Shown one piece after another: positions 3,376-15,854 of a DNA stretch of 32,000 nt (the stretch's first letter is position 1; each line of letters starts with the position of its first letter). The notes under the pieces are model-generated. The model made no database searches. It was given only the letters and a program-made list of their open reading frames with translations, and had not been told where the DNA came from. Source of the DNA: Candidatus Micrarchaeum sp. (GTDB lineage: Archaea; Micrarchaeota; Micrarchaeia; Micrarchaeales; Micrarchaeaceae); contig NZ_CP060530.1 in the NCBI RefSeq assembly GCF_016806735.1, forward strand, positions 600,001 to 632,000, read 5' to 3'. A program made the position numbers and the translations under genes.

Positions 3376-5943
3376 TCAAATCCCGTTTTTTGAGCGGAAC
3401 GTGGAATTGGCCTTTATGCGCTCAAGCGTTTTTTGGAGTGATATCTTTATGTCCCCCCTGAAATTGCCCTTAGCCCTGAAGAAGCTCTCGACCTTTGAAT
3501 ACTGCTTTTTGCTGCTGCACATGGAAAGGTTGTCTATATAGCGCGGCAGCATGTGGGTGCCTATCTCATATTTTTCCATGAGCTTGGGCCAGCTGTCGTA
3601 TGTCCATTGCTCTAGCGCGTTGAATGCCGCTGGATTCCCGGACATCACTGCAGGTATTACGAAAGAATCTTGCAGCCTCACTTCAGGAGACATGCAGAAC
3701 TTGAGCGCTTTGCTTATCTCCTCTCTGCCCGCAAAATAGCCAAAAGTCTGCAACAAGCGCCTTTTTTCTTCCGGATTTTTTGCTTTTTTGTACATGCTTA
3801 ATACCGTTTCAAAAAGCTTTTGACCCCCGTTTGCTGCGCAAGTCGCATAGATTGAAGAGCGCAGGTCTGGATCTATGCCCTCCTTGCCTGAAGCAGATTT
3901 GGAGAAAATCGAATTTGCTTTTTTGATTACATCCGGATTTCCGAGTTGGCCAAGAAGCCTTATTGAATGGGAACGAATCAGTGAGTCTATGTTCTTCTCG
4001 TTCTTTTTCTTGCTCCAGCCTTTAGTTTTCAGTATTTCCCCAGCAAAGGCAAGACCAAGCGATTTTACCGCGTCGTACAGCTTGGTGCCATAAAGCATGA
4101 AGTCGAGCCAGTCTATGTGCGAGAGTATCGATGCAATGGCCGGATAGCCCACGCCCATGCAATAGCCTTTTACAAATTCGATATAATCTATTGCCTTTAC
4201 GTTGCCAGAACGCATTAGGGCGAAGAGATCATTTTCGATACCCCACGCATCCAAGCCGGAAAGCTTGCCAGACTTTATTGCATGGCCCAGCTTCTCCAGC
4301 CCTTGCTTTTCGTACATTACCCTATACAGGTAATCCTGCTTGTAGTTCAGCTTTAGAATATCGTTTTCAGCATGCGCTATTTCAAGCTTGTCTTTAGTCA
4401 TCAGCTCAAAGCGCTCCTTGCTTCCGCTTAGGTATTTTATTGGGATTATCCATTTTTGCGAGTCGATACTTGAGCCAACAGGCTTTGATATTACAAACCT
4501 TTGCTGGCTAAGCCTTGCCCTTTTCTGCCCATCGTTCACCTTTATGATTGGATAGCCGGTGTTGTCGAGCCACGTGTTCGCAAATTTTTTTATGAACTTG
4601 CCGTTTGGCATTGACGATTTGAGTGATTCTTCATATATCGCGTTCCAGAGGTCATATTTTGTCGCGTTGGAGTACGAATGCTCTTTTAGATAGCCGTGCA
4701 GTCCTGCCCTGAACACTTCCGGGGTGGCAAAATCCTCAAGCATGTGCAGGAATGTGCCGCCTTTCTCATAGCTTATTTCATCAAAAATTTCGTTTATTTC
4801 TTCAGGAGTTGAAACATCTACGCTTATTGGATGAGTATGGATCAAAGAATCCGCAGAAAATGCGGTTGCTATCACATCATCAAAATACTGTATGTCCATC
4901 TGCCATTCAGGGAAAACTGCTTCCATAGCCTTAAAGCTCATGTACGTTGCAAAGCTTTCGTTAAGCCAGAGGTCATTCCACCATTCCATCGTGACCAAAT
5001 CTCCAAACCATTGATGGGCAAGTTCGTGCGCTACGGTTTCTGCTATTTGCTGTTTGTACGAAACGGCTGAATCCTTTTCAGTTCCAAGCATTGCGGTTTC
5101 CCTGAATGTTATTGCTCCCCAGTTTTCCATTGCCCCTGCCGCAAAGTCCGGTATTGCTATCAAATCCACTTTTGGCAAAGGGTATTTTATCTTAAAATAG
5201 TCCTCATAAAATGCAATGAATTTCTTTGCATAGCCAAGCGCCAGATAACAAAGCTGCTTTTTGCCAGGAGTTGCCAGCACATTTATCTTTAGCTTGCCCA
5301 GGCTTGTGCTTACGCTTTCGAATTTTCCAACGCCTAAGAAGAGCAGATATGAGGACATTTTAGGCGTTTCCATGAACTTGACTGTCTTCCTGCCATTGCT
5401 TATAGTTTCCGATTTTACCGGCATGTTTGAGATTGCACGCATCTCTTTAGGTATTTCCATCGTGACATCAAACGTTGCCTTAAAGCCAGGTTCGTCAAAG
5501 CACGGAAATGCTGCGCGGGCATCCGCAGCCTCGAATTGCGACGTAAGGATATATTCTTTTGCGCCTTTCTGGTTGGTATATTCGCTTTTGTAAAATCCGT
5601 ACATGTCTTCGTTGTTTATTCCGCTGAAATTTATAATCAGTGTGGCTTTGCCCGAAACTGCTTTATTGAAGCTTAATGTTGTGATTTTATTTTTTTTGTC
5701 GATTTTTACGCTGCAATCCTGTTCTGAACCGCTTGACATTATTTTTGCATGCTTGAACTTTATTTTATTGGAGTTTATTTTTATCGAATTTGTTTGTTTT
5801 GATATTGACACCAGAATTTCTTCCGTCCCTTCATATACGAAGTTCTTGAAGTCAGTATTAAAAAATAATTTGTAGTTAATTGGCTTCACTATGTCCCCTA
5901 GCCTGTTCGCGCTTGCTTTGGTTTTTTGATATTTTGATTGCAT
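3376..5943 (-). CDS. M1-family zinc aminopeptidase (tricorn-interacting-factor F2/F3-like)
   Basis: GAMEN exopeptidase motif (AAGAMENWG) and HELAH-X18-E zinc site (HELAHQWFGDLVTMEWWNDLWLNESFA). ATG start at 5943. Confidence 0.9.
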   Translation of the reverse strand: MQSKYQKTKASANRLGDIVKPINYKLFFNTDFKNFVYEGTEEILVSISKQTNSIKINSNKIKFKHAKIMSSGSEQDCSVKIDKKNKITTLSFNKAVSGKATLIINFSGINNEDMYGFYKSEYTNQKGAKEYILTSQFEAADARAAFPCFDEPGFKATFDVTMEIPKEMRAISNMPVKSETISNGRKTVKFMETPKMSSYLLFLGVGKFESVSTSLGKLKINVLATPGKKQLCYLALGYAKKFIAFYEDYFKIKYPLPKVDLIAIPDFAAGAMENWGAITFRETAMLGTEKDSAVSYKQQIAETVAHELAHQWFGDLVTMEWWNDLWLNESFATYMSFKAMEAVFPEWQMDIQYFDDVIATAFSADSLIHTHPISVDVSTPEEINEIFDEISYEKGGTFLHMLEDFATPEVFRAGLHGYLKEHSYSNATKYDLWNAIYEESLKSSMPNGKFIKKFANTWLDNTGYPIIKVNDGQKRARLSQQRFVISKPVGSSIDSQKWIIPIKYLSGSKERFELMTKDKLEIAHAENDILKLNYKQDYLYRVMYEKQGLEKLGHAIKSGKLSGLDAWGIENDLFALMRSGNVKAIDYIEFVKGYCMGVGYPAIASILSHIDWLDFMLYGTKLYDAVKSLGLAFAGEILKTKGWSKKKNEKNIDSLIRSHSIRLLGQLGNPDVIKKANSIFSKSASGKEGIDPDLRSSIYATCAANGGQKLFETVLSMYKKAKNPEEKRRLLQTFGYFAGREEISKALKFCMSPEVRLQDSFVIPAVMSGNPAAFNALEQWTYDSWPKLMEKYEIGTHMLPRYIDNLSMCSSKKQYSKVESFFRAKGNFRGDIKISLQKTLERIKANSTFRSKNGI

Positions 5944-5981
5944 ATATACACCCTATAAACATGGTTTTAGAATTTTAAACA

Positions 5982-6941
5982 TCAACTGCCTAAGCCCAGC
6001 TGTTCGATGGTTTCCTTTACTGCCTTCCTTACTGCTTCGTCGCTTGAATAAGTGTTTTTCCATCCTTTTGAGTATAGCTTTACAGGAGACAGTTCAGCAA
6101 CTTTTACGTCACCTTTCCAGCCGCCGCCGTCTTCAGTCTTTACCAGCATTTTTTCAACGCCTTTTGCACCCATTTCCTCTATAACCATGTCTGCAATTTT
6201 CATTACGGAAGTGGTGCCTTCATTTGCGATATTGTAAACGTCAAGATCCTTGGTTTTTTCATGCGAGAAAACCATTGCCCTTATGCAATCGGAAACGTGT
6301 AAATACGATTTTCTTTGCGTTCCATCCCCAAGTATTTCAAGTTTTTTGCTATCCTTGACAAGTTTTTTTATGAAATCGAATATTACGCCGTGTGTAGAGT
6401 TCTTGCCAACTATGTTTGCGAACCTGAATATTGTTGACTTTATCCCGTAATAATTTGAATATGCGCTTATCATTGCCTCATCGCTAAGCTTTGAAGCGCC
6501 ATATGATGATATGGGAAGTAGCGGCCCATATTCTTCAGGAGTAGGCAGAACTTTTGCAACCCCAAAAACAGTAGAGCTTGAAGAAAACATCAGATCGCTT
6601 ATCCCGTTCTTTCGCGCTGTTTCCAGGATATTGAAGGTGCCAAGTATATTAGAATCAAAATCCTTTTCAGGGTTTTCAAAACCGTGCCGTACATCTGAAT
6701 TTGCAGCGAAATGTATTATTGAATCGGCTTTCAGCTTTAAGGCTTCCTCTCTTTTTGTTATGTCGATTTTCGTTAATTTTAGGTCTCCAAGTTCGTACAG
6801 AGGTTTTAGAAATCTGTCGTCACCTGTTGATGACAGATTATCCGCAACTTCAACCGAATGGCCTTCCTTTAAAAGCAGCTCAACCATATTCGACCCTATA
6901 AAACCAGCACCACCAGTAACTATTATTTTCTTCGACTCCAT
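5982..6941 (-). CDS. NAD-dependent sugar-nucleotide epimerase/dehydratase (SDR family)
   Basis: Rossmann motif IIVTGGAGFIGSN close to the N-terminus if ATG 6941 (MESKKIIVTGG...) is used. Catalytic YxxxK present (SYGASK). The longer ATG at 6986 overlaps the upstream stop as ATGA. Confidence 0.85.
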   Translation of the reverse strand: MESKKIIVTGGAGFIGSNMVELLLKEGHSVEVADNLSSTGDDRFLKPLYELGDLKLTKIDITKREEALKLKADSIIHFAANSDVRHGFENPEKDFDSNILGTFNILETARKNGISDLMFSSSSTVFGVAKVLPTPEEYGPLLPISSYGASKLSDEAMISAYSNYYGIKSTIFRFANIVGKNSTHGVIFDFIKKLVKDSKKLEILGDGTQRKSYLHVSDCIRAMVFSHEKTKDLDVYNIANEGTTSVMKIADMVIEEMGAKGVEKMLVKTEDGGGWKGDVKVAELSPVKLYSKGWKNTYSSDEAVRKAVKETIEQLGLGS

Positions 6942-6965
6942 TCCAACACGATTTCTTTTAAAAAA

Positions 6966-6979
6966 GAAATTATAAAAAG
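6966..6979 (-). promoter_or_regulatory. Candidate TATA box for the epimerase gene
   Basis: The minus strand reads CTTTTTATAATTTC, centred about 32 nt upstream of ATG 6941. Confidence 0.3.
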
Positions 6980-6982
6980 TGG

Positions 6983-9229
6983 TCATAAATTTAGTTGTAT
7001 TTGCCTGCTTGCCCTAAATTCTATGCTTTTGATCAATTTTTTATGGTCGCTGAGGAATTCCAAGGTATACTCTCTGGATTTTATAAGTGTGTATTCGATA
7101 TTCATCTTGTTTGAAGTTATCCGATCTTCTTTCATAAACGTACCCAGATAACAAAGGCGGACGTAAGCAGGGACTTTTTTCTGCTCCTGCATAGTTATAG
7201 ATACGTTGGCTTTTATCGATTTAGGGCTTCTTTTTGATTTTGAGCCGTTTTCTGGTGAATCCGGAACGCCCTGGATTTTTTGTAGATGGATTTCAGGCTC
7301 TATTTCGTTATACCCGATGGTTTTTATGAATAAAGTGTCTGGAGACAGTTTTAAGCCATCCCTTTCTACCATATAGTTCAACGCGCCGAAACCGGATTCC
7401 AGATGTTTTAGCTTGGCTATTATTCGTTCTTCTTCCACATTGAAAAATACAAGATCTTCTACAGCCTTTTTTGCCACATCGGTAGGCTGCTTGAGATAGA
7501 TTTTGGATTGGCATAGCCTTCTGATATCTTGGTCTATGTCGGTTATGCTGTGGACTAATAGCATTAGACCCACGCCCAATTTCCTGAAATCCTGAATCCT
7601 TGAGCGTATGTCCATAACCGTTGCAGATTTTTGGTCCTTGAAAAGCATTTGGGCTTCCTCAACGCATATGAGCATGCGAAGACTTCCGTCTCCTTTAGTA
7701 TCAAATTTTGAGGTTTCCGAATACAGCTGATTTAATATCAGTGCATAAAAAAAGCTTTTCATCTGGACGCTGACTTCCGAAACATCGAATATTATCCCGT
7801 CTTCCAGCAATTTGCCAATGCTTATTGATTCTCTGCCAGAATATTCCGGAAATTGGAGTATTTCTATTAGGCCTTCCAATGAGGATTTTATGTTCTCGCC
7901 ATGCTTTGTATATTTTACTCCGGTGTTGCTTCTGCTTCCGTGAAGCTCTATTATCGATTCGCTTATTTCCTTGTATATTGATATGGGATCGATCGCTTTA
8001 TTGTTGGAATAATAACGCCTGAATGCGTTTAGCAGGCATTTCTCAAGCGGCTTCTGATAAGGGCCAGACTCTGAAGCTGACGCAAGCAGCATTGATAGAT
8101 CCTGGTAAAATCTTTTAATTTCTACCCCTTCCGGAGGAATGAAAAAGTTTATTGGAACCCCATCGGAGCATATTTTTATTACATGCATGCCATGCGATTT
8201 GCCGAAATTAGCCCATTCGTCGGTTGGAGCTATTACGGCTATTTTAGGTTTTTCTTCCTGCTTGCTTAGCTGCGATATTATGCCCATAGCTTCGCTCGTT
8301 TTGCCTGTCCCTGGAAGGCCGCTTATTATAAAGCCCAGGTTGAAAAGGTTTTTGGGCATCTTTATATCTTTATAGTAATCGGCAGACGAGTATTTTACCG
8401 AACCTACCTTAATTCCGGATTCAGAAAATGAGGGCTTTGAATTAATCACATATTTCAGATCGTAATTGCCATAGGGCTTTAGGAGCTTGGCCGCAGCTAA
8501 GTTTCCAAAAGGTATCATTTTTGTTTTATTGACATAATCGAAGACCTCCGTTATATTATTCGTGTTTATCTCTGCATTCCCCATCACAAGTGCCTTTGAA
8601 TGCACATATTCCGAAATTTTATCCGTGTATTCTTGATCCACGATGTAGAATAGGGCTATTTTATATGATACACCATTGTTCATTATCGCAAAGTTTATTT
8701 GCTCTAGCGCCTCTTTTAGGATTCCTGATTCTTCGGAGTTGTCAAAAATTTCATGTTGAAACGAAGTTGAATCGCTGTTTCCCAAATTTAGAAAATTTCT
8801 CCATGTTGAGTTAAAGCGGTTTGGCATAGAGCTAAGTGTTTTTTCCATCTCTGCCTTTACGTTTCCAAGTTCTGAGGTGACCAAAGGCACAAACACTATG
8901 CCAAAAACTCCGGATCTTACCCCTATGTCAAATACGTCAGAGAATAGATCTTCCCTGATTGATTCTATTGATTTGTAAAAAAGGCACACGGACGCTTTTT
9001 TGAAGGCAAGCTGCTTATTTGCTAGGGAAAACGAGAGCCCGTCCATAGTGCTTGATATTAAATTTATTTTTTCAGACGGGTTTTCACAGTTTAGTTTGAT
9101 GAATGTGCTTTTTGATTCGAAATCGTATAAAACCGCAAAACCGTCTGCGTATATGCGTTCCAACAACAATTGGCCATTGAATCCGTCGCTTGGGACGCCA
9201 TCGAATTTGAATAAGTTTGATTCAGGCAT
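6983..9229 (-). CDS. Large HerA/FtsK/VirB4-superfamily P-loop ATPase (748 aa), last gene of the cluster
   Basis: Walker A GLPGTGKT (aa 304-311, nt about 8297-8320). Walker-B-like hydrophobic strand LICVEEAQ (aa 520-527). An FRKLGVGLMLLVHS block occupies the position of the (R/K)K.G.G....TQ motif. It has a roughly 300 aa N-terminal domain, a roughly 100 aa C-terminal extension, and no TM helices. Confidence 0.8.
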   Translation of the reverse strand: MPESNLFKFDGVPSDGFNGQLLLERIYADGFAVLYDFESKSTFIKLNCENPSEKINLISSTMDGLSFSLANKQLAFKKASVCLFYKSIESIREDLFSDVFDIGVRSGVFGIVFVPLVTSELGNVKAEMEKTLSSMPNRFNSTWRNFLNLGNSDSTSFQHEIFDNSEESGILKEALEQINFAIMNNGVSYKIALFYIVDQEYTDKISEYVHSKALVMGNAEINTNNITEVFDYVNKTKMIPFGNLAAAKLLKPYGNYDLKYVINSKPSFSESGIKVGSVKYSSADYYKDIKMPKNLFNLGFIISGLPGTGKTSEAMGIISQLSKQEEKPKIAVIAPTDEWANFGKSHGMHVIKICSDGVPINFFIPPEGVEIKRFYQDLSMLLASASESGPYQKPLEKCLLNAFRRYYSNNKAIDPISIYKEISESIIELHGSRSNTGVKYTKHGENIKSSLEGLIEILQFPEYSGRESISIGKLLEDGIIFDVSEVSVQMKSFFYALILNQLYSETSKFDTKGDGSLRMLICVEEAQMLFKDQKSATVMDIRSRIQDFRKLGVGLMLLVHSITDIDQDIRRLCQSKIYLKQPTDVAKKAVEDLVFFNVEEERIIAKLKHLESGFGALNYMVERDGLKLSPDTLFIKTIGYNEIEPEIHLQKIQGVPDSPENGSKSKRSPKSIKANVSITMQEQKKVPAYVRLCYLGTFMKEDRITSNKMNIEYTLIKSREYTLEFLSDHKKLIKSIEFRASRQIQLNL

Positions 9230-9500
9230 GCAGAATCACTACCAAAAGTTGCAATGAAAGCATTAATACCAAAAGCGATGTACTGGCGGCCCGCAAGTAT
9301 TTTTCCCTTAGAATTGCGTTAGAGCATAAGGCAGAAATCAGAATCAAAACTACGATTGGTACCGCAAATGCCTTAATCCCTGAGAATATTGAAAGGGTGG
9401 ATAGAAGCCAACAGGAAAAAATTGATAGAGCCAGTGTAACCCTTACCGTATGCGTGCCCTTTTTCGAACCCCCATATAACCGTGATATGTTTGCGAGCAT
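9222..9500 (-). CDS. Small integral membrane protein (92 aa from ATG 9500, about 3 TM helices)
   Basis: ATG 9500 follows the upstream stop as TAA-A-ATG. Its stop overlaps the ATPase start by 8 nt (ATGCCTGA). It has three hydrophobic segments. The ORF-track start at 9509 is GTG. Confidence 0.55.
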   Translation of the reverse strand: MLANISRLYGGSKKGTHTVRVTLALSIFSCWLLSTLSIFSGIKAFAVPIVVLILISALCSNAILREKYLRAASTSLLVLMLSLQLLVVILHA

Positions 9501-9501
9501 T

Positions 9502-9672
9502 TTAGGCACCTATGAGCATCCAAATGCCGAATAGTATTATCAACAGCGATACGATCATTTCCTTTATTTGACGTTTCTCAGTATATCCGTAAAGCACTGA
9601 AGCTATCGCCACCAAAAAACAGACTGAATCGGCAAGCGTATACAGTAATGACGTGTTAGGTTTCAGCATCAT
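9502..9672 (-). CDS. Unlisted 56-aa two-helix membrane protein (MMLKPNTSLLYTLADSVCFLVAIASVLYGYTEKRQIKEMIVSLLIILFGIWMLIGA)
   Basis: Hand translation of the minus strand gives an ATG-ATG start at 9672 and a TAA stop at 9504-9502. The start overlaps the upstream gene end by 17 nt, and the stop lies 1 nt before the next ATG. The protein is two hydrophobic helices joined by a basic loop (TEKRQIKE). It falls below the length cutoff of the ORF track. Confidence 0.45.
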   Translation of the reverse strand: MMLKPNTSLLYTLADSVCFLVAIASVLYGYTEKRQIKEMIVSLLIILFGIWMLIGA

Positions 9673-10357
9673 GAAGTATCAACCTTTGAGATTCGAACAT
9701 AAGCGAGCATAAGGCCCCCTTTCTTGAAAATGTAGAGATAAGCGAGTCAAATTCTGCATAGTCTGATTTTCTGCATGCAACGATATTTAGCAAACCATTT
9801 TTGAATTTGTTTGAAAGTATCCTTGACGTAGTGCAGTTCAAAAAAGAGCTAAAGTCCATATAGGAGGCAATTTCTAATATTTTCTTGGGATTTTTTTTGT
9901 TAATGTATACGCCAGAAGCCAGGTTTTTTTCATATGCAAGCCTTGAAGCTACAGATTTTCTGAAGTTTTTTGAACAGCTTATGAAATTGCCACATATTAC
10001 TGTAGTGAAATCAGAATATGTTGCTGCTCCAAATGCAGGCACATGGCTTTCAAATGGCAGCATGTTGTAAGTTGCATTGATGCCATATGCCTCTTCCTTG
10101 AGTATCGCCATGCTTCGCTCTTCAAAACTTGAAGTCTTTCCCTCGCCAAATTGCAAGTAACATCCTACTTTGTCCAAATCAGAATACAGCTTAACCGAGT
10201 CCTTTGCGTTTATCTTGGATGAAATAAAAAATAGCATGAACAGTCCAGATAGCCCAATGAAAAGCAATCCCTGCACCATGCCATATTGGAGCAAAATGAA
10301 TCCAGATGCCGTAAAAAGCAATGCAAACGACAACAATTCATTGCTAGATAGATTCAT
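9656..10357 (-). CDS. Membrane-anchored protein of unknown function (2 N-terminal TM helices plus a roughly 170 aa domain)
   Basis: ATG 10357 (MNLSSNELLSFALLF...) overlaps the upstream stop by 14 nt. Hydrophobic segments are at aa about 10-50. No recognisable motif. Confidence 0.6.
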   Translation of the reverse strand: MNLSSNELLSFALLFTASGFILLQYGMVQGLLFIGLSGLFMLFFISSKINAKDSVKLYSDLDKVGCYLQFGEGKTSSFEERSMAILKEEAYGINATYNMLPFESHVPAFGAATYSDFTTVICGNFISCSKNFRKSVASRLAYEKNLASGVYINKKNPKKILEIASYMDFSSFLNCTTSRILSNKFKNGLLNIVACRKSDYAEFDSLISTFSRKGALCSLMFESQRLILHDAET

Positions 10358-10979
10358 CGATAAGCACCCTTTTATAGCCAATGGCCCATTTTACCGTTTC
10401 AATCTCGACTCCTGAAGAGGTGCAAAACCTGCTTATGGCGTTGTCATCGTTCCAGTATGCCTTTGATATTGACTGAAAAAGATTCGAGAATTTTGACAAG
10501 TCCGTTGATTTTATTGCGTTCTCGCGTATCTTTTTGATTGCGATTTCGGATAGTACAATGTTGCTTCTTCGGATTTCTTTATATAATTCAATTGCCGATT
10601 CATTTTCGCTTTCATCGGGATTGTCCTTTTTCACACCTCTTAACGAGTCCATAAGAATCGGGTAAAGCGATTCCAGCTTTGCAGAGTAAGAATCTTTAAG
10701 ATATGCCAGTATTGAAAGGGTAAGAATTGAAATGTCGCACAAACTCAAATCTTCAGCCGATCTTGACTTGAATTCCAGTGAAATGCTGTCACGATATAAA
10801 TCGATCTGCAGTTTTGCAGGTTTTGTGCCCAAATCCAGGTCAAACGAGTAATAGTTCCCTCTTGAAATAAGTTTTGCATTTGGTAGGAAAGACATGACAC
10901 GCATCAATTCATTTCCAGAAACAAGGCGTTCGGCTTTTACGTTTATTTTTCTCTCAGCAACCATACTATCTTTTTTCAT
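10344..10979 (-). CDS. Soluble protein of unknown function (211 aa)
   Basis: ATG 10979 follows the ATPase stop as TGA-A-ATG. The ORF-track start at 10988 is GTG. No TM helices and no recognisable motif. Confidence 0.6.
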   Translation of the reverse strand: MKKDSMVAERKINVKAERLVSGNELMRVMSFLPNAKLISRGNYYSFDLDLGTKPAKLQIDLYRDSISLEFKSRSAEDLSLCDISILTLSILAYLKDSYSAKLESLYPILMDSLRGVKKDNPDESENESAIELYKEIRRSNIVLSEIAIKKIRENAIKSTDLSKFSNLFQSISKAYWNDDNAISRFCTSSGVEIETVKWAIGYKRVLIDESI

Positions 10980-10980
10980 T

Positions 10981-12075
10981 TCAAGCACCAGATTTTTGCA
11001 ATGTGTGTTTAATCGATGCCGCGATAATAATGTCTTTGATTCCCAACTTCCGCATGAAATATATTACTTTTTCCCTGGTGCAGCCATTATCAATGAGCAT
11101 GCGGACAATCTTTTCTATGGAGATGGATCTAAGCTCGCTTTCTATTAAGAAATCGAGTTTTCCGCTTATCTCCTTTCCGAATGCATGTTCGGCAGCTTCC
11201 ATTATCGAACGCTTAGTAAGGGTATATTCCATGGAATCACACTTCACAGTACAGAAACCTATCTCGAATTTTTGTATGTGCTTTATAGCTGACTTTTTTA
11301 CCTTTCCGCCAAGGCTTAGCATTATGCAGTAAAACGATCCCCTTTCCAACTCCGGAAGAGCTATAAGCTCTTTTTCTTCCAACAGCATTGACGATTTAAG
11401 CGAATTCAAGTTATCCGTTCCGTATATCTTGAACAGGAATATAGTACCGGCATTGTAGATTATTTCGTTGTTGACGTCTCCTAAAAGTTGTGTTGCGGCT
11501 ATTATGCCTATCCCGTATTTCCTTCCTTCCCTGAATATTCGTGATATTTGGACTTTGGTATCAGGATTTCCTAAAAAGTGCCATATTTCATCAACAAACA
11601 CTGACATGTCCATGCTGCCTATTGAACCCATACAGTCAAGAATTTGAGATAGCAACAGTGTAGCCTTTGACAGCTTCGCCTCAGCTTCAAATTTTGACAG
11701 GTTAAGGTATTGGCCCTTGGATTTTGAAAATCCTGCTTTCGATTCGGATTCGGATAATGCCAATGCATGTGCTATTCCGGCGTATTCCCCAGACCAATCT
11801 AATATTATAATGCGCTTGCCTGCAATTGATGAGAATTTCATTATCAGGTTTAGCATCAGGTTAGTTTTTCCAGACCCTGAAGTGCCGAGTATTGCAATAT
11901 GCGGATTTATGAGGCTCTTTCTTACATAGAATACCGGATCACGGTATTTTTGGGTTTTGCCTATGTAAACAGCTTCTTCTAACTCTTCTAGGGAATTTTG
12001 CGGCTCCGAAGGCTCAAAGAAGGGGATTTTAGAAACAAGAGATCCAACAGGGATTATATTTTTCATTTTTACCAC
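10981..12075 (-). CDS. Compact HerA/VirB4/FtsK-class P-loop ATPase (364 aa)
   Basis: NPHIAILGTSGSGKT Walker A (aa 57-71), VFVDEIWHFL Walker B (aa 159-168), and REGRKYGIGIIAATQ (aa 182-196). These resemble the DEAW and RK.G....TQ signatures of VirB4/HerA-type ATPases. Position 12075 is GTG sharing 1 nt with the upstream TAG; an ATG lies at 12066. Confidence 0.85.
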   Translation of the reverse strand: MVKMKNIIPVGSLVSKIPFFEPSEPQNSLEELEEAVYIGKTQKYRDPVFYVRKSLINPHIAILGTSGSGKTNLMLNLIMKFSSIAGKRIIILDWSGEYAGIAHALALSESESKAGFSKSKGQYLNLSKFEAEAKLSKATLLLSQILDCMGSIGSMDMSVFVDEIWHFLGNPDTKVQISRIFREGRKYGIGIIAATQLLGDVNNEIIYNAGTIFLFKIYGTDNLNSLKSSMLLEEKELIALPELERGSFYCIMLSLGGKVKKSAIKHIQKFEIGFCTVKCDSMEYTLTKRSIMEAAEHAFGKEISGKLDFLIESELRSISIEKIVRMLIDNGCTREKVIYFMRKLGIKDIIIAASIKHTLQKSGA

Positions 12076-12791
12076 TAATGGATGGCCCGGATTATTTCAG
12101 AAGCCTTCAAAACCTTTGAGGTTGAACCAAGTACCGAATCGAATAGGCTAGACACTTGCTTTATGGCCATTTTTGCAGAATTCTGTGCGGCATAGGCGTT
12201 ATCCCCGTACTCTGACACTATAACGTAATAATGGACGTTTACTGGAGTTCCGCCAGATACGAAGTCTTCTATTTCAGCGCTTAGGTGGCTTATTTCGGCT
12301 CTGAGCCTTGCCTCCACCATTGCGGACTTATGGGAGGATTTGTCAAGGCGCGAAAGCTGTATCTCTTTTATTCTTTTCTGTGTCTGCAGCTTTTCCATGA
12401 AATTTTTTAAATTGACCCTTTCGACAGATGCCATGAACCTGAAAGGAAATTCTGTTTTGGATATTATGCTTTCCATACTATCCCTGTCCAGTTTCCCATT
12501 TCCGGATCCGTTTATAGATGAAGCAGCTATTGCAGTGTATCCATTGTTCGATCTGCTAAGTAGACATAACTTGTCATTTCCTTCAATTATATTGCCATCG
12601 CTGCCGTTAACGCCAAGTAACCGCTCGGAATGAATTATGTTGGCTTTGGTGTCTATTATCAAAAGTGCATAGGCTATGCCGAGCAGTAGTGCCATTGGCC
12701 AGTAATTATGCATAAATGCGATTATAAGCAGAGCGATGCCAGCCTGCATTATCAGGTTCTCGTTTCTTCTTAGTGCATTTTTAATCTTCAT
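12075..12791 (-). CDS. Membrane protein with an N-terminal TM hairpin and a roughly 170 aa soluble domain (238 aa)
   Basis: ATG at 12791. Two hydrophobic helices at aa about 15-47, then a coiled-coil-like segment (QTQKRIKEIQLSRL...RLRAEISHLSAEIED). It directly abuts the 364-aa ATPase. Confidence 0.65.
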   Translation of the reverse strand: MKIKNALRRNENLIMQAGIALLIIAFMHNYWPMALLLGIAYALLIIDTKANIIHSERLLGVNGSDGNIIEGNDKLCLLSRSNNGYTAIAASSINGSGNGKLDRDSMESIISKTEFPFRFMASVERVNLKNFMEKLQTQKRIKEIQLSRLDKSSHKSAMVEARLRAEISHLSAEIEDFVSGGTPVNVHYYVIVSEYGDNAYAAQNSAKMAIKQVSSLFDSVLGSTSKVLKASEIIRAIH

Positions 12792-12800
12792 TTCAAAACC

Positions 12801-13817
12801 TTAAAACACGTCAAACCTTGAAAAGGACACTTCTGTTCCGAGTATCCTAGCAAATTCCCTTGCAGATATTATGGTAAGAATTACGCTGAAGATTGGAAAC
12901 ATTATCACTTCAACCACTATCAGCACCACCTGCCTGAAAACATACAGTATTGAATTTTCAGAGGATGAGAGTATGGAAGACGCATTTGAGAAAATGGAAC
13001 TTATTGATTCTTTGCTTGGCTGCGAAGATTGATTATAGGAATACAGGCCATTCAAGCTAGATTTTGTTGCGGTTATTAATTGTAAAGTAGAAGTTTGCGA
13101 ATAGCTTTGAACCATAGATGCATCAAGCATATAGGACATTGGCAGCACCACGAAAAGGCTTATCGCTATAGCCATTATTGCCCCGCCAAGCCTGCGGGTA
13201 AGATAAAGGGTGCGGAGAACCATGCCCAAAGGCAATAGCACAGGTATAGCTACATATGAAATTACTTTGATTACTGAATATTGCAAGAATATACTGAATA
13301 CTGAAAGCGTGAGGAGTTCTATTATATCCCCCAATTGCATGAGGAACGGCTTGAACAGGTTGTTAAATGATATCGATGCCAAGCCAATGCTCAGATGCAG
13401 CGAGGAAATAAGCCCTGCAACAGCATATAAGCTGCTTATTGCAAGAAGCGACCCGCTCGACAGGTCAAATAACGATGGATATTGATGGCCGTTTATTGTG
13501 ACTCCGGACAACCCCATTAGGTAACCTTCCGAAAAACATATTGCATAGCTATAGTTGTATGGACCTGTGCATGCATTGACAGAATTGCCAGAAACCCCAT
13601 ATGCTATGGAATTGGTAATTTCCGTTACAAAACCACCTGGAAGAAACAGTATTATTAAAATTCCAAGAATTGCGGCATTTATAAACGATTCTATGAGTTC
13701 GTTCCTGCCGAAATCCTTGAGCTTTTTGTTGTCAAATGCGAACCCAAGCCCAAATATGATTCCGCCCACTGCCAGCATTATCGAAACGATTGTAATACCT
13801 ATTTCGTATCCGTACAT
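12801..13817 (-). CDS. Polytopic integral membrane protein (about 6-7 TM helices), VirB6/TrbL/CedA-like by architecture only
   Basis: ATG 13817 (MYGYEIGITIVSIML...). The longer ORF-track start at 13874 would overlap the upstream gene by 44 nt. It has multiple long hydrophobic segments and a Ser/Thr/Asn-rich loop (SYSQTSTLQLITATKSSLNGLYSYNQSSQPSKESISSIFSNASSILSSSENS) before the last TM helix. Confidence 0.65.
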   Translation of the reverse strand: MYGYEIGITIVSIMLAVGGIIFGLGFAFDNKKLKDFGRNELIESFINAAILGILIILFLPGGFVTEITNSIAYGVSGNSVNACTGPYNYSYAICFSEGYLMGLSGVTINGHQYPSLFDLSSGSLLAISSLYAVAGLISSLHLSIGLASISFNNLFKPFLMQLGDIIELLTLSVFSIFLQYSVIKVISYVAIPVLLPLGMVLRTLYLTRRLGGAIMAIAISLFVVLPMSYMLDASMVQSYSQTSTLQLITATKSSLNGLYSYNQSSQPSKESISSIFSNASSILSSSENSILYVFRQVVLIVVEVIMFPIFSVILTIISAREFARILGTEVSFSRFDVF

Positions 13818-13830
13818 TCGGCCGCACGCT

Positions 13831-14235
13831 TTATGTTGTAGACACGGAATTGGCGAGCAGATGCGAAGATGCAACTGCGAGAGAGGTTGATGCCACGCTT
13901 AGAAGGCTTATTATTATTGCCCCGATTATGATATTTATCGAAGCTGTATGGAAATTGGCCCTCTTGTCCGGAGGCATTACCTGGCCTACGGCATAGAATA
14001 CCCCAGCAACTATGAAAAGAACCGCGCCAAGGATAGGGCCTACCTGCGAAAGCACAGATTTGATGTATGTCAATTCAGATACGATGCCTATCGTATTCGA
14101 ATTCAGGAGCATTGGAGAAGCACCGTTGCTTATCGAAAACAGGTATATCTGCAGTACGAAAAGCAGGATAAGCAGATGCTTGATCCTGAGCAATTTGCTA
14201 GCTAGTGCTTTTACATATCTAGGAATTTTTGGCAT
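13831..14235 (-). CDS. Secreted/membrane two-helix protein; candidate VirB2/TrbC/CedA1-like pilin (134 aa)
   Basis: ATG 14235 is preceded by GGTG at -9 to -6. A long basic n-region and hydrophobic core form a signal peptide (MPKIPRYVKALASKLLRIKHLLILLFVLQIYLFSISNGA). Two hydrophobic helices follow (aa about 65-86 and 99-122), joined by a basic loop (MPPDKRANFHTA). Confidence 0.6.
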   Translation of the reverse strand: MPKIPRYVKALASKLLRIKHLLILLFVLQIYLFSISNGASPMLLNSNTIGIVSELTYIKSVLSQVGPILGAVLFIVAGVFYAVGQVMPPDKRANFHTASINIIIGAIIISLLSVASTSLAVASSHLLANSVSTT

Positions 14236-14333
14236 GTCTACACCTTTTACTTTTATACAAGTATTTTATTTAGATAAATATTTAAATACTTTTATACAAG
14301 TAAGGCGTAGGAAATAGGCATTAGATTTCTGAA
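14236..14333 (-). promoter_or_regulatory. Only sizeable intergenic gap inside the cluster; AT-rich candidate internal promoter/operator for the pilin-like gene
   Basis: The 98-nt gap contains two perfect 16-nt repeats and a central inverted repeat (see the repeat feature), several TATA-like stretches, and a GGTG Shine-Dalgarno-like element. Confidence 0.45.
14248..14302. repeat. Two perfect 16-nt direct repeats TACTTTTATACAAGTA (14248-14263 and 14287-14302) flanking the inverted repeat TATTTA-GA-TAAATA
   Basis: Read directly from the sequence. Each 16-mer is itself a near-palindrome (TACTT-nTATAn-AAGTA; 14 of 16 positions are self-complementary). Spacing between copies is 39 nt. Confidence 0.9.
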
Positions 14334-15854
14334 TTATTTGGATTTATTCGCAGAATAGTTAAGGTATTCGGAATTTAGATAGGATAAACCTCCCTGGAGA
14401 AAAGTGTATTTGTTTGATATGTAATGCGAAATGTTCATGTACAGGTTCGGGAGCTCTACGCTTGCGTTTCTGTATCTAAGTACTCTGTGGGATACATACG
14501 ATATGTGTCCGTTTACATTCGTAGTTCCGTTTGTCAATACAATGTAGAACATGCAACTTTTGTTCGTATAAAAGCTTATATTTACTTCTTTAGTATTCAT
14601 GAACTTCCCAAAGCTGTATTTCGAAATGCTTTTTTTATAATTCGAATAGTTTGATTGGCCGCTTATGCTTATGCCATTTATGAAATCCGAAGCGTTTCTG
14701 AGTTCGAAAAAGCTTGCATTCGAGCTGAACGATAGCGATGCTTTGTAGGTTATATTAAAGCCGGGAGCGCAGAAAGAATCGAACGTGTAATATGGAAATG
14801 CGTACATCTTTACTTTTTTTGTACCGTTTTCTACTGAGGTGACAGGAATTTCGACATTACTTTTTACATAGTCTCCGGAATAGCTGATTGGACCGAAGGC
14901 AGATTTTGCCACTGCAGAAGTATTGCTCAACGGGATCGCTCTTACTGTAGTGTAGTTGGAATAGTTAAAAGGCATAAAATAAGCATATATGCCTTTGGTG
15001 AATTCTGGTGAAGCAATATTCAGGGAAAGATTGGCAACATAGTCGTTCGTTTCGTTTATCTGGCTTAATGTTGAATTTATCTCTTGCCCGTTCCCATAGA
15101 AGAACTGAATGTTTGACAGGTTTGCTGTAGTATAGCTAGAAAGCCCAGAATAATTTACTTCGACAGGATAGTAAACGGTTGAAGAATTGGGCTGATGCTC
15201 AAAAAGAGAGTCATTGATGCTTATCCTTGCATGCGGAAACATGCCCAGAGACAGCGAGGGCCCTGTAGGCCATATTGGCGCTATGATAAGAACCATGGCA
15301 ACAACCATGGCAGCATAAAGCATCATTTGTACGGTTTTTTTTGATGGTGAAAATCTTTTGCGTATTTTATGAAGTTTAGACTCTCCAAAAGCAGTACTTA
15401 TAAATATTGATATGACTGCGCCTATGAGCAGATAGTATCCAACTATTGCGGTGTTTATTGCAAAATTCAGGTTTGCAAAAAATCCCAGCAAATACAGCAG
15501 ATCTGGAAGCGCAAGGACGAAATAGGAATATATCTTGTATTCTCTTTTCATGTCAATTATATATACTGCAAAAAAGGCAGCGATGGAAAATATGCCGTAG
15601 TACTCCGAGATGCTCTTTCCCATATAGAGAAGAGAGCCAGCGATTATGAAAGCCAGAGCACCTACGATTTCGTAGGTGGAGAGCTTATCGCTGAATGCTG
15701 ACAGTACTCCCAAGATTACGAATAAGGGAAACGCGTACAGTATTAAGTACGCGTTGTTGGTAATGGTAAAGTATGCCAGGAACATTGCAGCCAGAAAAAG
15801 CCACAGTGCAAGGGCGACAGGTTTTAACGCCCTTTCTACATCCCTGTTTGGCAT
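14334..15854 (-). CDS. 7-TM membrane protein with a large Asn/Ser/Tyr-rich, sequon-dense extracellular domain (506 aa); first gene of the cluster
   Basis: ATG 15854 lies 15 nt after the aCPSF1 stop. There are seven hydrophobic segments in aa about 11-193. Within aa about 195-506 I count about 22 N-X-S/T sequons. Confidence 0.7.
   Translation of the reverse strand: MPNRDVERALKPVALALWLFLAAMFLAYFTITNNAYLILYAFPLFVILGVLSAFSDKLSTYEIVGALAFIIAGSLLYMGKSISEYYGIFSIAAFFAVYIIDMKREYKIYSYFVLALPDLLYLLGFFANLNFAINTAIVGYYLLIGAVISIFISTAFGESKLHKIRKRFSPSKKTVQMMLYAAMVVAMVLIIAPIWPTGPSLSLGMFPHARISINDSLFEHQPNSSTVYYPVEVNYSGLSSYTTANLSNIQFFYGNGQEINSTLSQINETNDYVANLSLNIASPEFTKGIYAYFMPFNYSNYTTVRAIPLSNTSAVAKSAFGPISYSGDYVKSNVEIPVTSVENGTKKVKMYAFPYYTFDSFCAPGFNITYKASLSFSSNASFFELRNASDFINGISISGQSNYSNYKKSISKYSFGKFMNTKEVNISFYTNKSCMFYIVLTNGTTNVNGHISYVSHRVLRYRNASVELPNLYMNISHYISNKYTFLQGGLSYLNSEYLNYSANKSK

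Follow-up and report, generated by a model that had tools for sequence, protein, structure and literature searches.

We report that a 134-amino-acid protein of Candidatus Micrarchaeum sp. is, with a probability that we put at roughly 0.75, the pilin-type subunit of a minimal type IV secretion-like apparatus that is fixed in the chromosome, resembles the archaeal systems Ced and Ted, and is kept throughout the Micrarchaeota that were sampled. The gene was studied within a stretch of 32,000 nucleotides (contig NZ_CP060530.1, positions 600,001 to 632,000 of the forward strand; hereafter the window), in which it occupies positions 13831 to 14235 on the minus strand, opens with an ATG and encodes the 134 residues followed by a stop codon. 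This open reading frame is real, and its translation is identical to the sequence on which a preliminary description of the window, made from the letters alone, had based the proposal of a VirB2/TrbC-type pilin. The proposal is supported by the Pfam matches of the protein family, by a search with the family profile, by a match to the pilin TrwL and by the CedB/VirB4/HerA-type ATPase encoded downstream. On these comparisons we consider it likely that the protein belongs to the VirB2/TrbC/T4SS_pilin superfamily, although the copy encoded in the window fails the Pfam threshold. The gene is strongly constrained, and its conservation goes far beyond chance.

The pilin and its relatives

We searched curated profiles with 67 aligned members of the pilin family and counted Pfam matches at E ≤ 0.01. 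PF18895 (T4SS_pilin) was matched by every one of the 67 members (best E 4.2e-7) and PF04956 (TrbC/VirB2) by 38 (best E 4.8e-7); DUF7541, the next family, was matched by 7. Some of the relatives appear to exceed the curated Pfam cut-offs, and precomputed annotation already assigns these pilin domains to many orthologues. The search with TrbC/VirB2 profiles that had been suggested in the preliminary description is thus positive for the family as a whole and negative for the window protein, which stays below threshold. In NCBIfam, the conjugation membrane protein family pLS20_p028 was weakly matched by 63 of the 67 members (best E 3e-5).

A search of 1.84 billion representative proteins with the family profile, run without a word filter, reached more distant relatives. 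It returned 73 proteins at E ≤ 1e-3, of which 60 lie outside the tight pilin family. Among these 60 distant proteins, PF18895 is matched by 17 (best E 4.6e-32) and the TrbC profile by 15 (best E 3.2e-24). The protein P0189, which was found with a profile E of 1.6e-18, exceeds the TrbC gathering score (30.7 vs 27.9). In the PDB, the pilin finds its best sequence match in TrwL, which is the VirB2 pilin of plasmid R388, with a weak E of 0.38. Comparison of the family profile with the aligned TrwL fragment in hhalign gave a probability of 41%, an E of 2.8e-4 and 30% identity over 37 columns, which fall in the first helix of the mature protein (alpha-1).

In total, 156 relatives of the pilin were found in a search of 5.8 billion proteins. 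Those with a taxonomic name come nearly all from Micrarchaeota, Micrarchaeia or mis-binned 'Marsarchaeota', and the database label is mostly 'hypothetical protein'. In GTDB r232, with one genome per species, a relative is encoded in 154 genomes, as a single copy in each and almost all of them labelled as Micrarchaeota, and tblastn yielded no match among 72,556 plasmids. Across loci, the identity of the pilin declines gradually from 88% to 46%. The family alignment contains 22 invariant columns, and the mean identity to the query amounts to 73% in the mature core (residues 53-128) vs 17% in the leader. A variable leader joined to a conserved core is the pattern that would be expected of a targeting peptide that is discarded and a mature subunit that is tightly packed.

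The leader (residues 1-38; 14122 to 14235) comprises an n-region of residues 1-20, MPKIPRYVKALASKLLRIKH, with six K/R residues and one H, a hydrophobic h-region of residues 21-36, and a c-region that reads ISNGAS; the basic n-region and the hydrophobic core of the preliminary description are thereby borne out. The small-residue context proposed for cleavage was recovered as well, whereas the exact site probably shifts by one residue. It had been placed at SNGA-S, and we prefer SNG-AS, with cleavage after G38, because in SNGA-S an N occupies position -3 (-3/-1 rule). A permissive -3/-1 heuristic gave candidate cleavage sites in 118 of 118 homologues, each of which also has a basic n-region and an h-region. 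Signal peptidase I probably removes the leader near SNG-AS, which would leave a mature pilin of about 96 amino acids with the predicted form of a helical hairpin.

This form is evident in both hydropathy and structure prediction. A Kyte-Doolittle profile places hydrophobic segments at about residues 21-36 (the leader), 65-83 and 100-121, and the hydropathy minimum at residues 85-97, the loop MPPDKRANFHTA. The AlphaFold2 model, built from the 67-sequence alignment, has a mean predicted local distance difference test score (pLDDT) of 83.4, with values of 91-97 across residues 61-120. It contains helices at residues 6-37 (leader), 47-86 and 89-133, a turn at P88-P89, and a linker of low confidence or disorder at residues 38-46. 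A pair of hydrophobic helices with a short connecting loop that carries K, R and H had been claimed from the sequence, and a monomer model had been named as a check. Hydropathy and the model, which predicts a helical hairpin at a pLDDT above 90 over residues 61-120, agree with this claim, and the loop reads PPDKRANFH.

Helix alpha-1 of the mature pilin (residues 47-86; 13978 to 14097) was delimited by AlphaFold2, hydropathy and the alignment. It has its transmembrane core at about residues 65-83 and carries the family motif QVGPxLxAVLFIVAGxFYAxGQ. The inter-helix loop (residues 87-98; 13942 to 13977) was defined by conservation and the predicted turn, and its residues P88, K91, A93, F95 and H96 are invariant in the alignment. 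According to the positive-inside rule, the loop is expected on the cytoplasmic side as long as the subunit resides in the membrane pool. By analogy with the structures of VirB2, TraA and TedC, it would point to the lumen of a filament and to lipid head groups (PMC9905601). The remaining part (residues 99-134; 13834 to 13941) consists of helix alpha-2, with a transmembrane core at about residues 100-121 according to AlphaFold2 and hydropathy, and of a C-terminal tail. An N-x-S/T sequon is present in this tail in 107 of 121 family members, the window pilin being without one, which suggests that the C-terminus is extracellular.

The operon and its surroundings

Gene order was compared by tblastn of the window proteins against the best 80 of the 154 loci, with one genome per species. 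The pilin gene is the first of a series of nine genes in every locus examined; it is followed by the genes for a 338-amino-acid protein, a 238-amino-acid protein and a 364-amino-acid ATPase, by four small or unknown genes, and by the gene for a 748-amino-acid ATPase. We found the pilin gene to be chromosomal and single-copy in 80/80 loci, some of which lie on contigs of 0.85-1.05 Mb. The 338-amino-acid protein is encoded directly after it in 79 of the 80 loci, and the genes for the 238-amino-acid protein and the 364-amino-acid ATPase are kept in 72 and 73, respectively. The 748-amino-acid ATPase was seen in 45, about 1.5-2.2 kb beyond the first ATPase, with many of the other loci ending earlier. 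The housekeeping genes that flank the series are shared with the closest relatives only and differ between lineages. A fixed series with changing flanks therefore marks the nine genes as a self-contained operon. Several contigs that carry it are filed under unrelated names, namely Methanothrix sp., Candidatus Acidoferrum sp., Acidiferrales bacterium and Aquilonibacter sp. (loci L001, on JAVYSI010000028.1, L012 and L031; proteins P0054 and P0099). L001 also carries 98%-identical aCPSF1 and proteasome genes, and these are probably mis-binned or mislabelled contigs of metagenome-assembled genomes.

All genes of the operon lie on the minus strand of the window. The 364-amino-acid protein (10981 to 12075) is an additional strand, conserved glutamate (ASCE) ATPase of the CedB/CedD/VirB4/HerA type with the Walker A motif GTSGSGKT. 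It was matched in NCBIfam by CedB (2.5e-16), CedD (1.1e-14) and the VirB4-like family CD1110 (9.5e-14), and in Pfam by DUF87/HerA (3.5e-13) and AAA_10. The profile of its family found HerA (1.3e-22) and the VirB4 ATPase domain 4ag5 (3.7e-15) in the PDB. These matches place the ATPase, as judged by sequence, in the HerA/VirB4/CedB clade. The alignment to the CedB model covers positions 228-314 of 590, and the scores for the Ced models reach about a tenth of the cut-offs (59.4 bits vs 700 for CedB, 54.1 vs 600 for CedD). The matches of this ATPase to TrwB_AAD_bind and TraD span only the P-loop, and no VirD4 was found above threshold in the operon or the window.

The gene for the 238-amino-acid protein (12075 to 12791), in which a membrane segment at the N-terminus is combined with a coiled coil, lies immediately ahead of that of the ATPase. 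CedB of NCBIfam was weakly matched by 6 of 46 members of its family (best E 7.5e-4); the family had no Pfam match, and the PDB yielded coiled-coil noise only. The protein may be the detached N-terminal part of a CedB/VirB4-like ATPase, as the weak CedB matches and the span that the 364-amino-acid ATPase covers on the CedB model hint; no fused form of the 238-amino-acid protein and the ATPase was found among 23 hits. The homologues of the ATPase in loci L001-L080 fall into two length classes of about 350-395 and 435-465 amino acids. The upstream partner stays at about 240 amino acids with either class, which are some 90 residues apart.

The 338-amino-acid polytopic membrane protein (12801 to 13817) is separated from the pilin gene by a 13-nucleotide gap and, by its position, is a candidate for the channel subunit. 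Its AlphaFold2 model has a pLDDT of 76.7. No similarity to VirB6, TrbL, CedA or, as far as it was probed indirectly, TedA could be detected; all sequence and fold searches with this protein came out empty, so that the label 'VirB6-like' is not justified by our data and the analogy is positional only. Beltran et al. are said to describe the N-terminus of the channel protein as resembling the pilin. When the pilin was compared with the N-terminus of the 338-amino-acid protein, the part that aligned, a transmembrane segment and a basic loop, hinted at a resemblance but fell short of significance (hhalign probability 1.2%, E 0.044).

Four overlapping genes (9222 to 10988) are located between the two ATPases. 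They encode a soluble protein of 214 amino acids (10344-10988), a protein of 241 amino acids with an N-terminal transmembrane segment (9656-10381), a hairpin of 56 amino acids with two transmembrane segments (9502-9672), and a protein of 95 amino acids with about three (9222-9509). None of the four had a Pfam or NCBIfam match. The same series of sizes and transmembrane segments is found between the ATPases in about 44 loci despite low sequence identity, typically as a soluble protein of ~215 amino acids, one of ~200-340 amino acids with one or two transmembrane segments, a ~62-amino-acid hairpin with two, and a ~97-amino-acid protein with three. The protein of about 60 amino acids with two transmembrane segments (9502-9672 and its counterparts in the other loci) lacks a leader and has a loop that is polar or basic, and its position is conserved whereas its sequence barely is. 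By this analogy of build, it recalls small subunits of the CedA2/VirB3 type or a second pilin-like hairpin. The last gene (6983 to 9229) encodes the 748-amino-acid second P-loop ATPase, with the Walker A motif GLPGTGKT and a HerA/CedD-like C-terminal part. It was matched by CedD in NCBIfam (1.3e-5) and Zot in Pfam (7.9e-4), and the profile search of the PDB gave HerA (5.4e-6). A gene for an NAD-dependent epimerase/dehydratase-like protein (5982-6986, minus strand) and the stop of the second ATPase gene overlap by 4 nucleotides, so that this gene may be co-transcribed with the operon; this linkage was seen in close relatives only (L002).

Upstream of the pilin gene lies its 5' region (14236 to 14333, minus strand), the putative promoter and operator of the operon. 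This non-coding stretch ahead of the ATG measures 98 nucleotides, compared with overlaps or gaps of at most 13 nucleotides among the remaining eight genes, and a Shine-Dalgarno (SD)-like element, AAAGGTG (14241-14247), stands 5 nucleotides ahead of the ATG. The pilin gene had been described as the only one of the cluster with its own upstream non-coding region and a GGTG element, and both features are present. A 16-nucleotide quasi-palindrome, TACTTGTATAAAAGTA, occurs here in two exact copies on the minus strand (14287-14302 and 14248-14263), 39 nucleotides apart, which flank the A/T-rich, TATA-like TTTAAATA (14279-14286). Elsewhere in the window the element is absent; each strand counts 2 sites, where 0.02 would be expected. 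A block of about 60 nucleotides upstream of the gene hardly varies among the three closest relatives, in which the sequence farther upstream diverges, and it was not found in more distant loci. We infer from this arrangement that the block may be a promoter with paired operator-like sites; the TACTTGTATAAAAGTA pair looks like binding sites of a regulator, or like two TATA-like boxes.

The position as first gene, the promoter-like block and the SD-like element would fit a pilin that is made in larger amounts than the machinery. No stable RNA hairpin or attenuator was detected 3' of the pilin gene, where the fold is no better than that of shuffled sequences (z = 0.69). The argument for an excess of the subunit therefore rests only on the first-gene position and the SD-like element. 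Directly upstream of the operon, a 506-amino-acid protein (14334-15854, minus strand) combines several membrane helices at its N-terminus with a C-terminal part that is dense in N-x-S/T sequons. It matched no family, and its conservation is limited to the three closest relatives, at 44-69% identity; its sequence suggests that it may be a glycosylated surface protein.

The rest of the window is ordinary archaeal chromosome, with genes for aCPSF1, a proteasome beta subunit, a Hel308-like helicase, TFB, a dCTP deaminase, a Y-family polymerase, a thioredoxin reductase and tRNA-Glu. A neighbouring protein is 83% identical to a protein of 'Ca. Micrarchaeum sp. ARMAN-1'. No integrase or relaxase was detected in the operon or the window. 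The GC content is about 0.38-0.43 over positions 5000-15000 vs 0.45-0.52 on both sides, and the GC skew flips near 13-16 kb. No hallmarks of mobile elements were found in this low-GC stretch, and the low GC over the operon may simply reflect the composition of membrane proteins.

Proposed mechanism and alternative explanations

If the pilin serves a Ced/Ted-like apparatus, its precursor would be inserted into the membrane by way of the basic and hydrophobic leader in a Sec-dependent manner, and signal peptidase I would cut the leader near SNG-AS, between G38 and A39. The mature hairpin of about 96 amino acids would adopt an N-out/C-out topology with the PPDKRANFH loop in the cytoplasm, as suggested by the positive-inside rule and the sequons of the homologues. 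From this membrane pool, pilins would be extracted and polymerised at a platform formed by the 338-amino-acid polytopic protein. The CedB/VirB4/HerA-type ATPase, which is maybe split into the 238- and 364-amino-acid products, would power the assembly, and the second HerA-type ATPase may assist it, like CedB and CedD in Sulfolobales; gene order and the family assignments suggest this step as a whole. The product would be a hollow and probably lipid-associated filament, or a short conduit through the surface layer (S-layer). By way of either, DNA or other macromolecules would pass between the Micrarchaeon and a second cell, which may be its Thermoplasmatales host or a member of its own species.

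Several observations weigh against this reading. The window pilin scores 18.4 bits against PF18895 (E 0.0023, cut-off 26.6) and 11.8 bits against PF04956 (E 0.3, cut-off 27.9). A Foldseek search of the PDB with its model returned nothing at E ≤ 0.001 and no pilin among the top 50. Ranked first were unspecific helical hairpins (ATP synthase c subunits, toxin helices), and since a fold of only two helices discriminates poorly, we regard the search as uninformative rather than negative. The family of the 338-amino-acid protein gave no profile match in Pfam, NCBIfam (47-52 members scanned) or the PDB, and its model gave nothing significant with Foldseek. For the 364-amino-acid ATPase, HerA outscores VirB4 in the PDB, so that an assignment to VirB4 rather than HerA cannot be made. 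In addition, no homologue of VirB3, VirB8, VirD4 or a relaxase was detected; the absence of a relaxase and of a coupling protein fits domesticated systems of the Ced/Ted and Patescibacteria kind. Filament, leader cleavage and cargo, finally, are inferred from sequence and context.

Among the alternatives, the one that fares best holds that the protein is a VirB2-related membrane subunit without an extended pilus, which remains within the membrane or barely above it and is part of a DNA or protein translocon, or forms a short stub on it, together with the polytopic protein and the HerA-type ATPases. We consider this unlikely. It draws on the same evidence for pilin homology, and it would agree with the single pilin gene per locus and with the lack of a homologue of a pilus-tip protein or adhesin. 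Type IV secretion systems (T4SSs) of monoderm bacteria have long been assumed to work without an extended pilus, and for a cell with a single membrane and an S-layer a short conduit would suffice. The co-culture paper on Micrarchaeum harzensis is also in line with it, containing no mention of pili, a pilus, pilin or a secretion system. However, the archaeal homologues CedA1 and TedC assemble into long pili although their cells have a single membrane (PMC9905601). High expression of the pilin is suggested by its position as first gene and by the strong SD-like element, and the extreme conservation of both helices fits tight packing between subunits.

It is considerably less probable that the protein is an unrelated two-helix membrane protein, for example c-subunit-like, holin-like or of the DUF7541 type, whose pilin matches arise from a bias in hydrophobic composition. 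The sub-threshold Pfam scores of the window protein would agree with such an origin, as its E for DUF7541 (0.0026) is close to that for T4SS_pilin (0.0023), and so would the c subunits at the top of the Foldseek matches and weak matches elsewhere in the family, to P-type ATPase in 23 of 67 members and to SLATT in 13. Across the family, however, the 7 matches to DUF7541 stand against 67 to T4SS_pilin, and helix 2 has no conserved acidic residue, which a c subunit needs. The profile search recovered strong T4SS_pilin and TrbC scorers rather than random membrane proteins, the TrwL alignment of alpha-1 also covers non-hydrophobic positions, and the linkage to the CedB/VirB4-type ATPase is conserved.

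That the operon belongs to an integrated conjugative element, as its transfer module, and not to the host is very improbable and was rejected: T4SS-like genes typically ride on mobile elements and the GC content dips to about 0.39-0.41 over 5-13 kb vs 0.45-0.52 in the flanks, but the operon is single-copy and collinear in all 80 species-level loci, including those on the contigs of 0.85-1.05 Mb, the identity of the pilin falls off gradually, the flanking genes are lineage-specific, as expected of an old resident operon, and the window contains no integrase, relaxase or repeat-bounded island and a single tRNA, 8.5 kb off amid housekeeping genes.

Significance and comparison with known systems

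We found no paper that links Micrarchaeota or other DPANN archaea with a VirB2-like pilin or a T4SS-like operon, in a search that missed most of the subscription-journal literature. In a T4SS review of December 2025, the archaeal section covers Sulfolobus plasmids and pT33-3 only. For Nanohaloarchaeota, VirB4-like ATPase domains in giant surface proteins have been proposed, which is a different arrangement (PMC10266531). The ways in which DPANN archaea adhere to their hosts and trade material with them remain to be settled; here the operon offers a concrete and testable candidate conduit, and cultivated Micrarchaeota are at hand for such tests (Ca. Micrarchaeum harzensis and Ca. Mancarchaeum acidiphilum). 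If our reading is true, VirB2-type pilins and domesticated T4SSs of the Ced/Ted kind extend from Crenarchaeota to DPANN archaea.

Like VirB2 of A. tumefaciens, TrbC of RP4 and TrwL of R388, the Micrarchaeota pilin has a small precursor in which a long leader precedes two hydrophobic helices with a short loop carrying basic residues between them, and the alpha-1 motif L..I...L..v.P...AV..i..Gi.YA.G aligns with TrwL. As for the bacterial pilins, its gene is linked to that of a VirB4-superfamily ATPase; to our knowledge, the VirB4-family ATPase is the only ubiquitous T4SS protein. Unlike them, it belongs to an archaeal host with a single membrane and an S-layer, its window representative falls below the family cut-off, and, in contrast to TrbC, it gives no sign of cyclisation. 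The operon itself also departs from the bacterial loci: no VirB1, VirB3, VirB5, VirB7-11, VirD4 or relaxase was detected in it, and it is chromosomal and phylum-wide in the sample rather than borne on a plasmid or an integrative conjugative element.

The archaeal Ced and Ted systems consist of a VirB2-like pilin, a VirB6-like channel and one or more VirB4-like ATPases, of which Ced has two (PMC9905601, PMC11868833), and the VirB6-like genes tedA and cedA adjoin tedC and cedA1, respectively (PMC9905601). The Micrarchaeota operon resembles Ted of Thermoproteales (TedC, TedA and TedB; PMC9905601) in being archaeal, chromosomal and domesticated, in a pilin with a predicted cleavable signal peptide, and in a pilin gene that adjoins the gene of a polytopic membrane protein with an ATPase of the HerA/VirB4 clade nearby; these parallels are architectural only. 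The Micrarchaeota operon departs from Ted in its short and possibly split ATPase, in a second ATPase and in four additional conserved genes. With Ced of Sulfolobales and Desulfurococcales (CedA1, CedA, CedA2, CedB and CedD) it has in common two paralogous HerA-clade ATPases, for which CedB and CedD are the best NCBIfam matches, a small protein with two transmembrane segments in addition to the pilin, an adjacent polytopic membrane protein, and a function that would belong to the host and not to a plasmid. CedA1 is reported to be unprocessed (PMC9905601), whereas the Micrarchaeota leader looks cleavable; gene order and content differ as well, and the CedB and CedD scores are far below the equivalog cut-offs. 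No Ced pilin family was matched in the NCBIfam scan of the 67 pilin members, the presence of a CedA1 model in that library being unconfirmed. Judged by sequence, no protein of the operon is the equivalog of a Ced component, and its gene content differs from that of Ced, Ted and the bacterial classes.

A parallel in way of life is offered by the Patescibacteria, or candidate phyla radiation, whose VirB2-like pilins were detected with the same Pfam models (PMC12102498, PMC12857230). PF18895, which includes the pilins of that group (PMC12102498), is the best-matching curated family of the Micrarchaeota pilin, and in both cases ultra-small, genome-reduced and host-dependent cells carry a chromosomal, relaxase-less T4SS-like locus. 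Patescibacteria often have arrays of 2-11 divergent pilin genes together with components of the MPF-FATA type, namely VirB3, VirB6, VirB8 and a type IV coupling protein (PMC12102498). The Micrarchaeota operon, by contrast, has one highly conserved pilin, and its accessory components are unrecognisable. In Patescibacteria, the T4SS genes have been reported as essential in a single experimental analysis (PMC12102498, PMC12857230), and the Micrarchaeota operon, if our reading is true, parallels these essential T4SS and pilin loci. As a more speculative extension, which we regard as possible but doubtful, Micrarchaeota and perhaps other DPANN archaea might own an ancient, vertically inherited nine-gene T4SS-like machine that includes a single VirB2-like pilin, a channel protein that cannot be recognised as such, a CedB/VirB4-like ATPase in two pieces and a second ATPase of the HerA type. 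It would form a third archaeal lineage of domesticated conjugation-like systems beside Ced and Ted and serve as a conduit to the Thermoplasmatales host for the uptake of DNA, lipids or other macromolecules, mirroring the essential T4SS and pilins of the epibiotic Patescibacteria as a convergent or shared solution in two radiations of very small symbionts.

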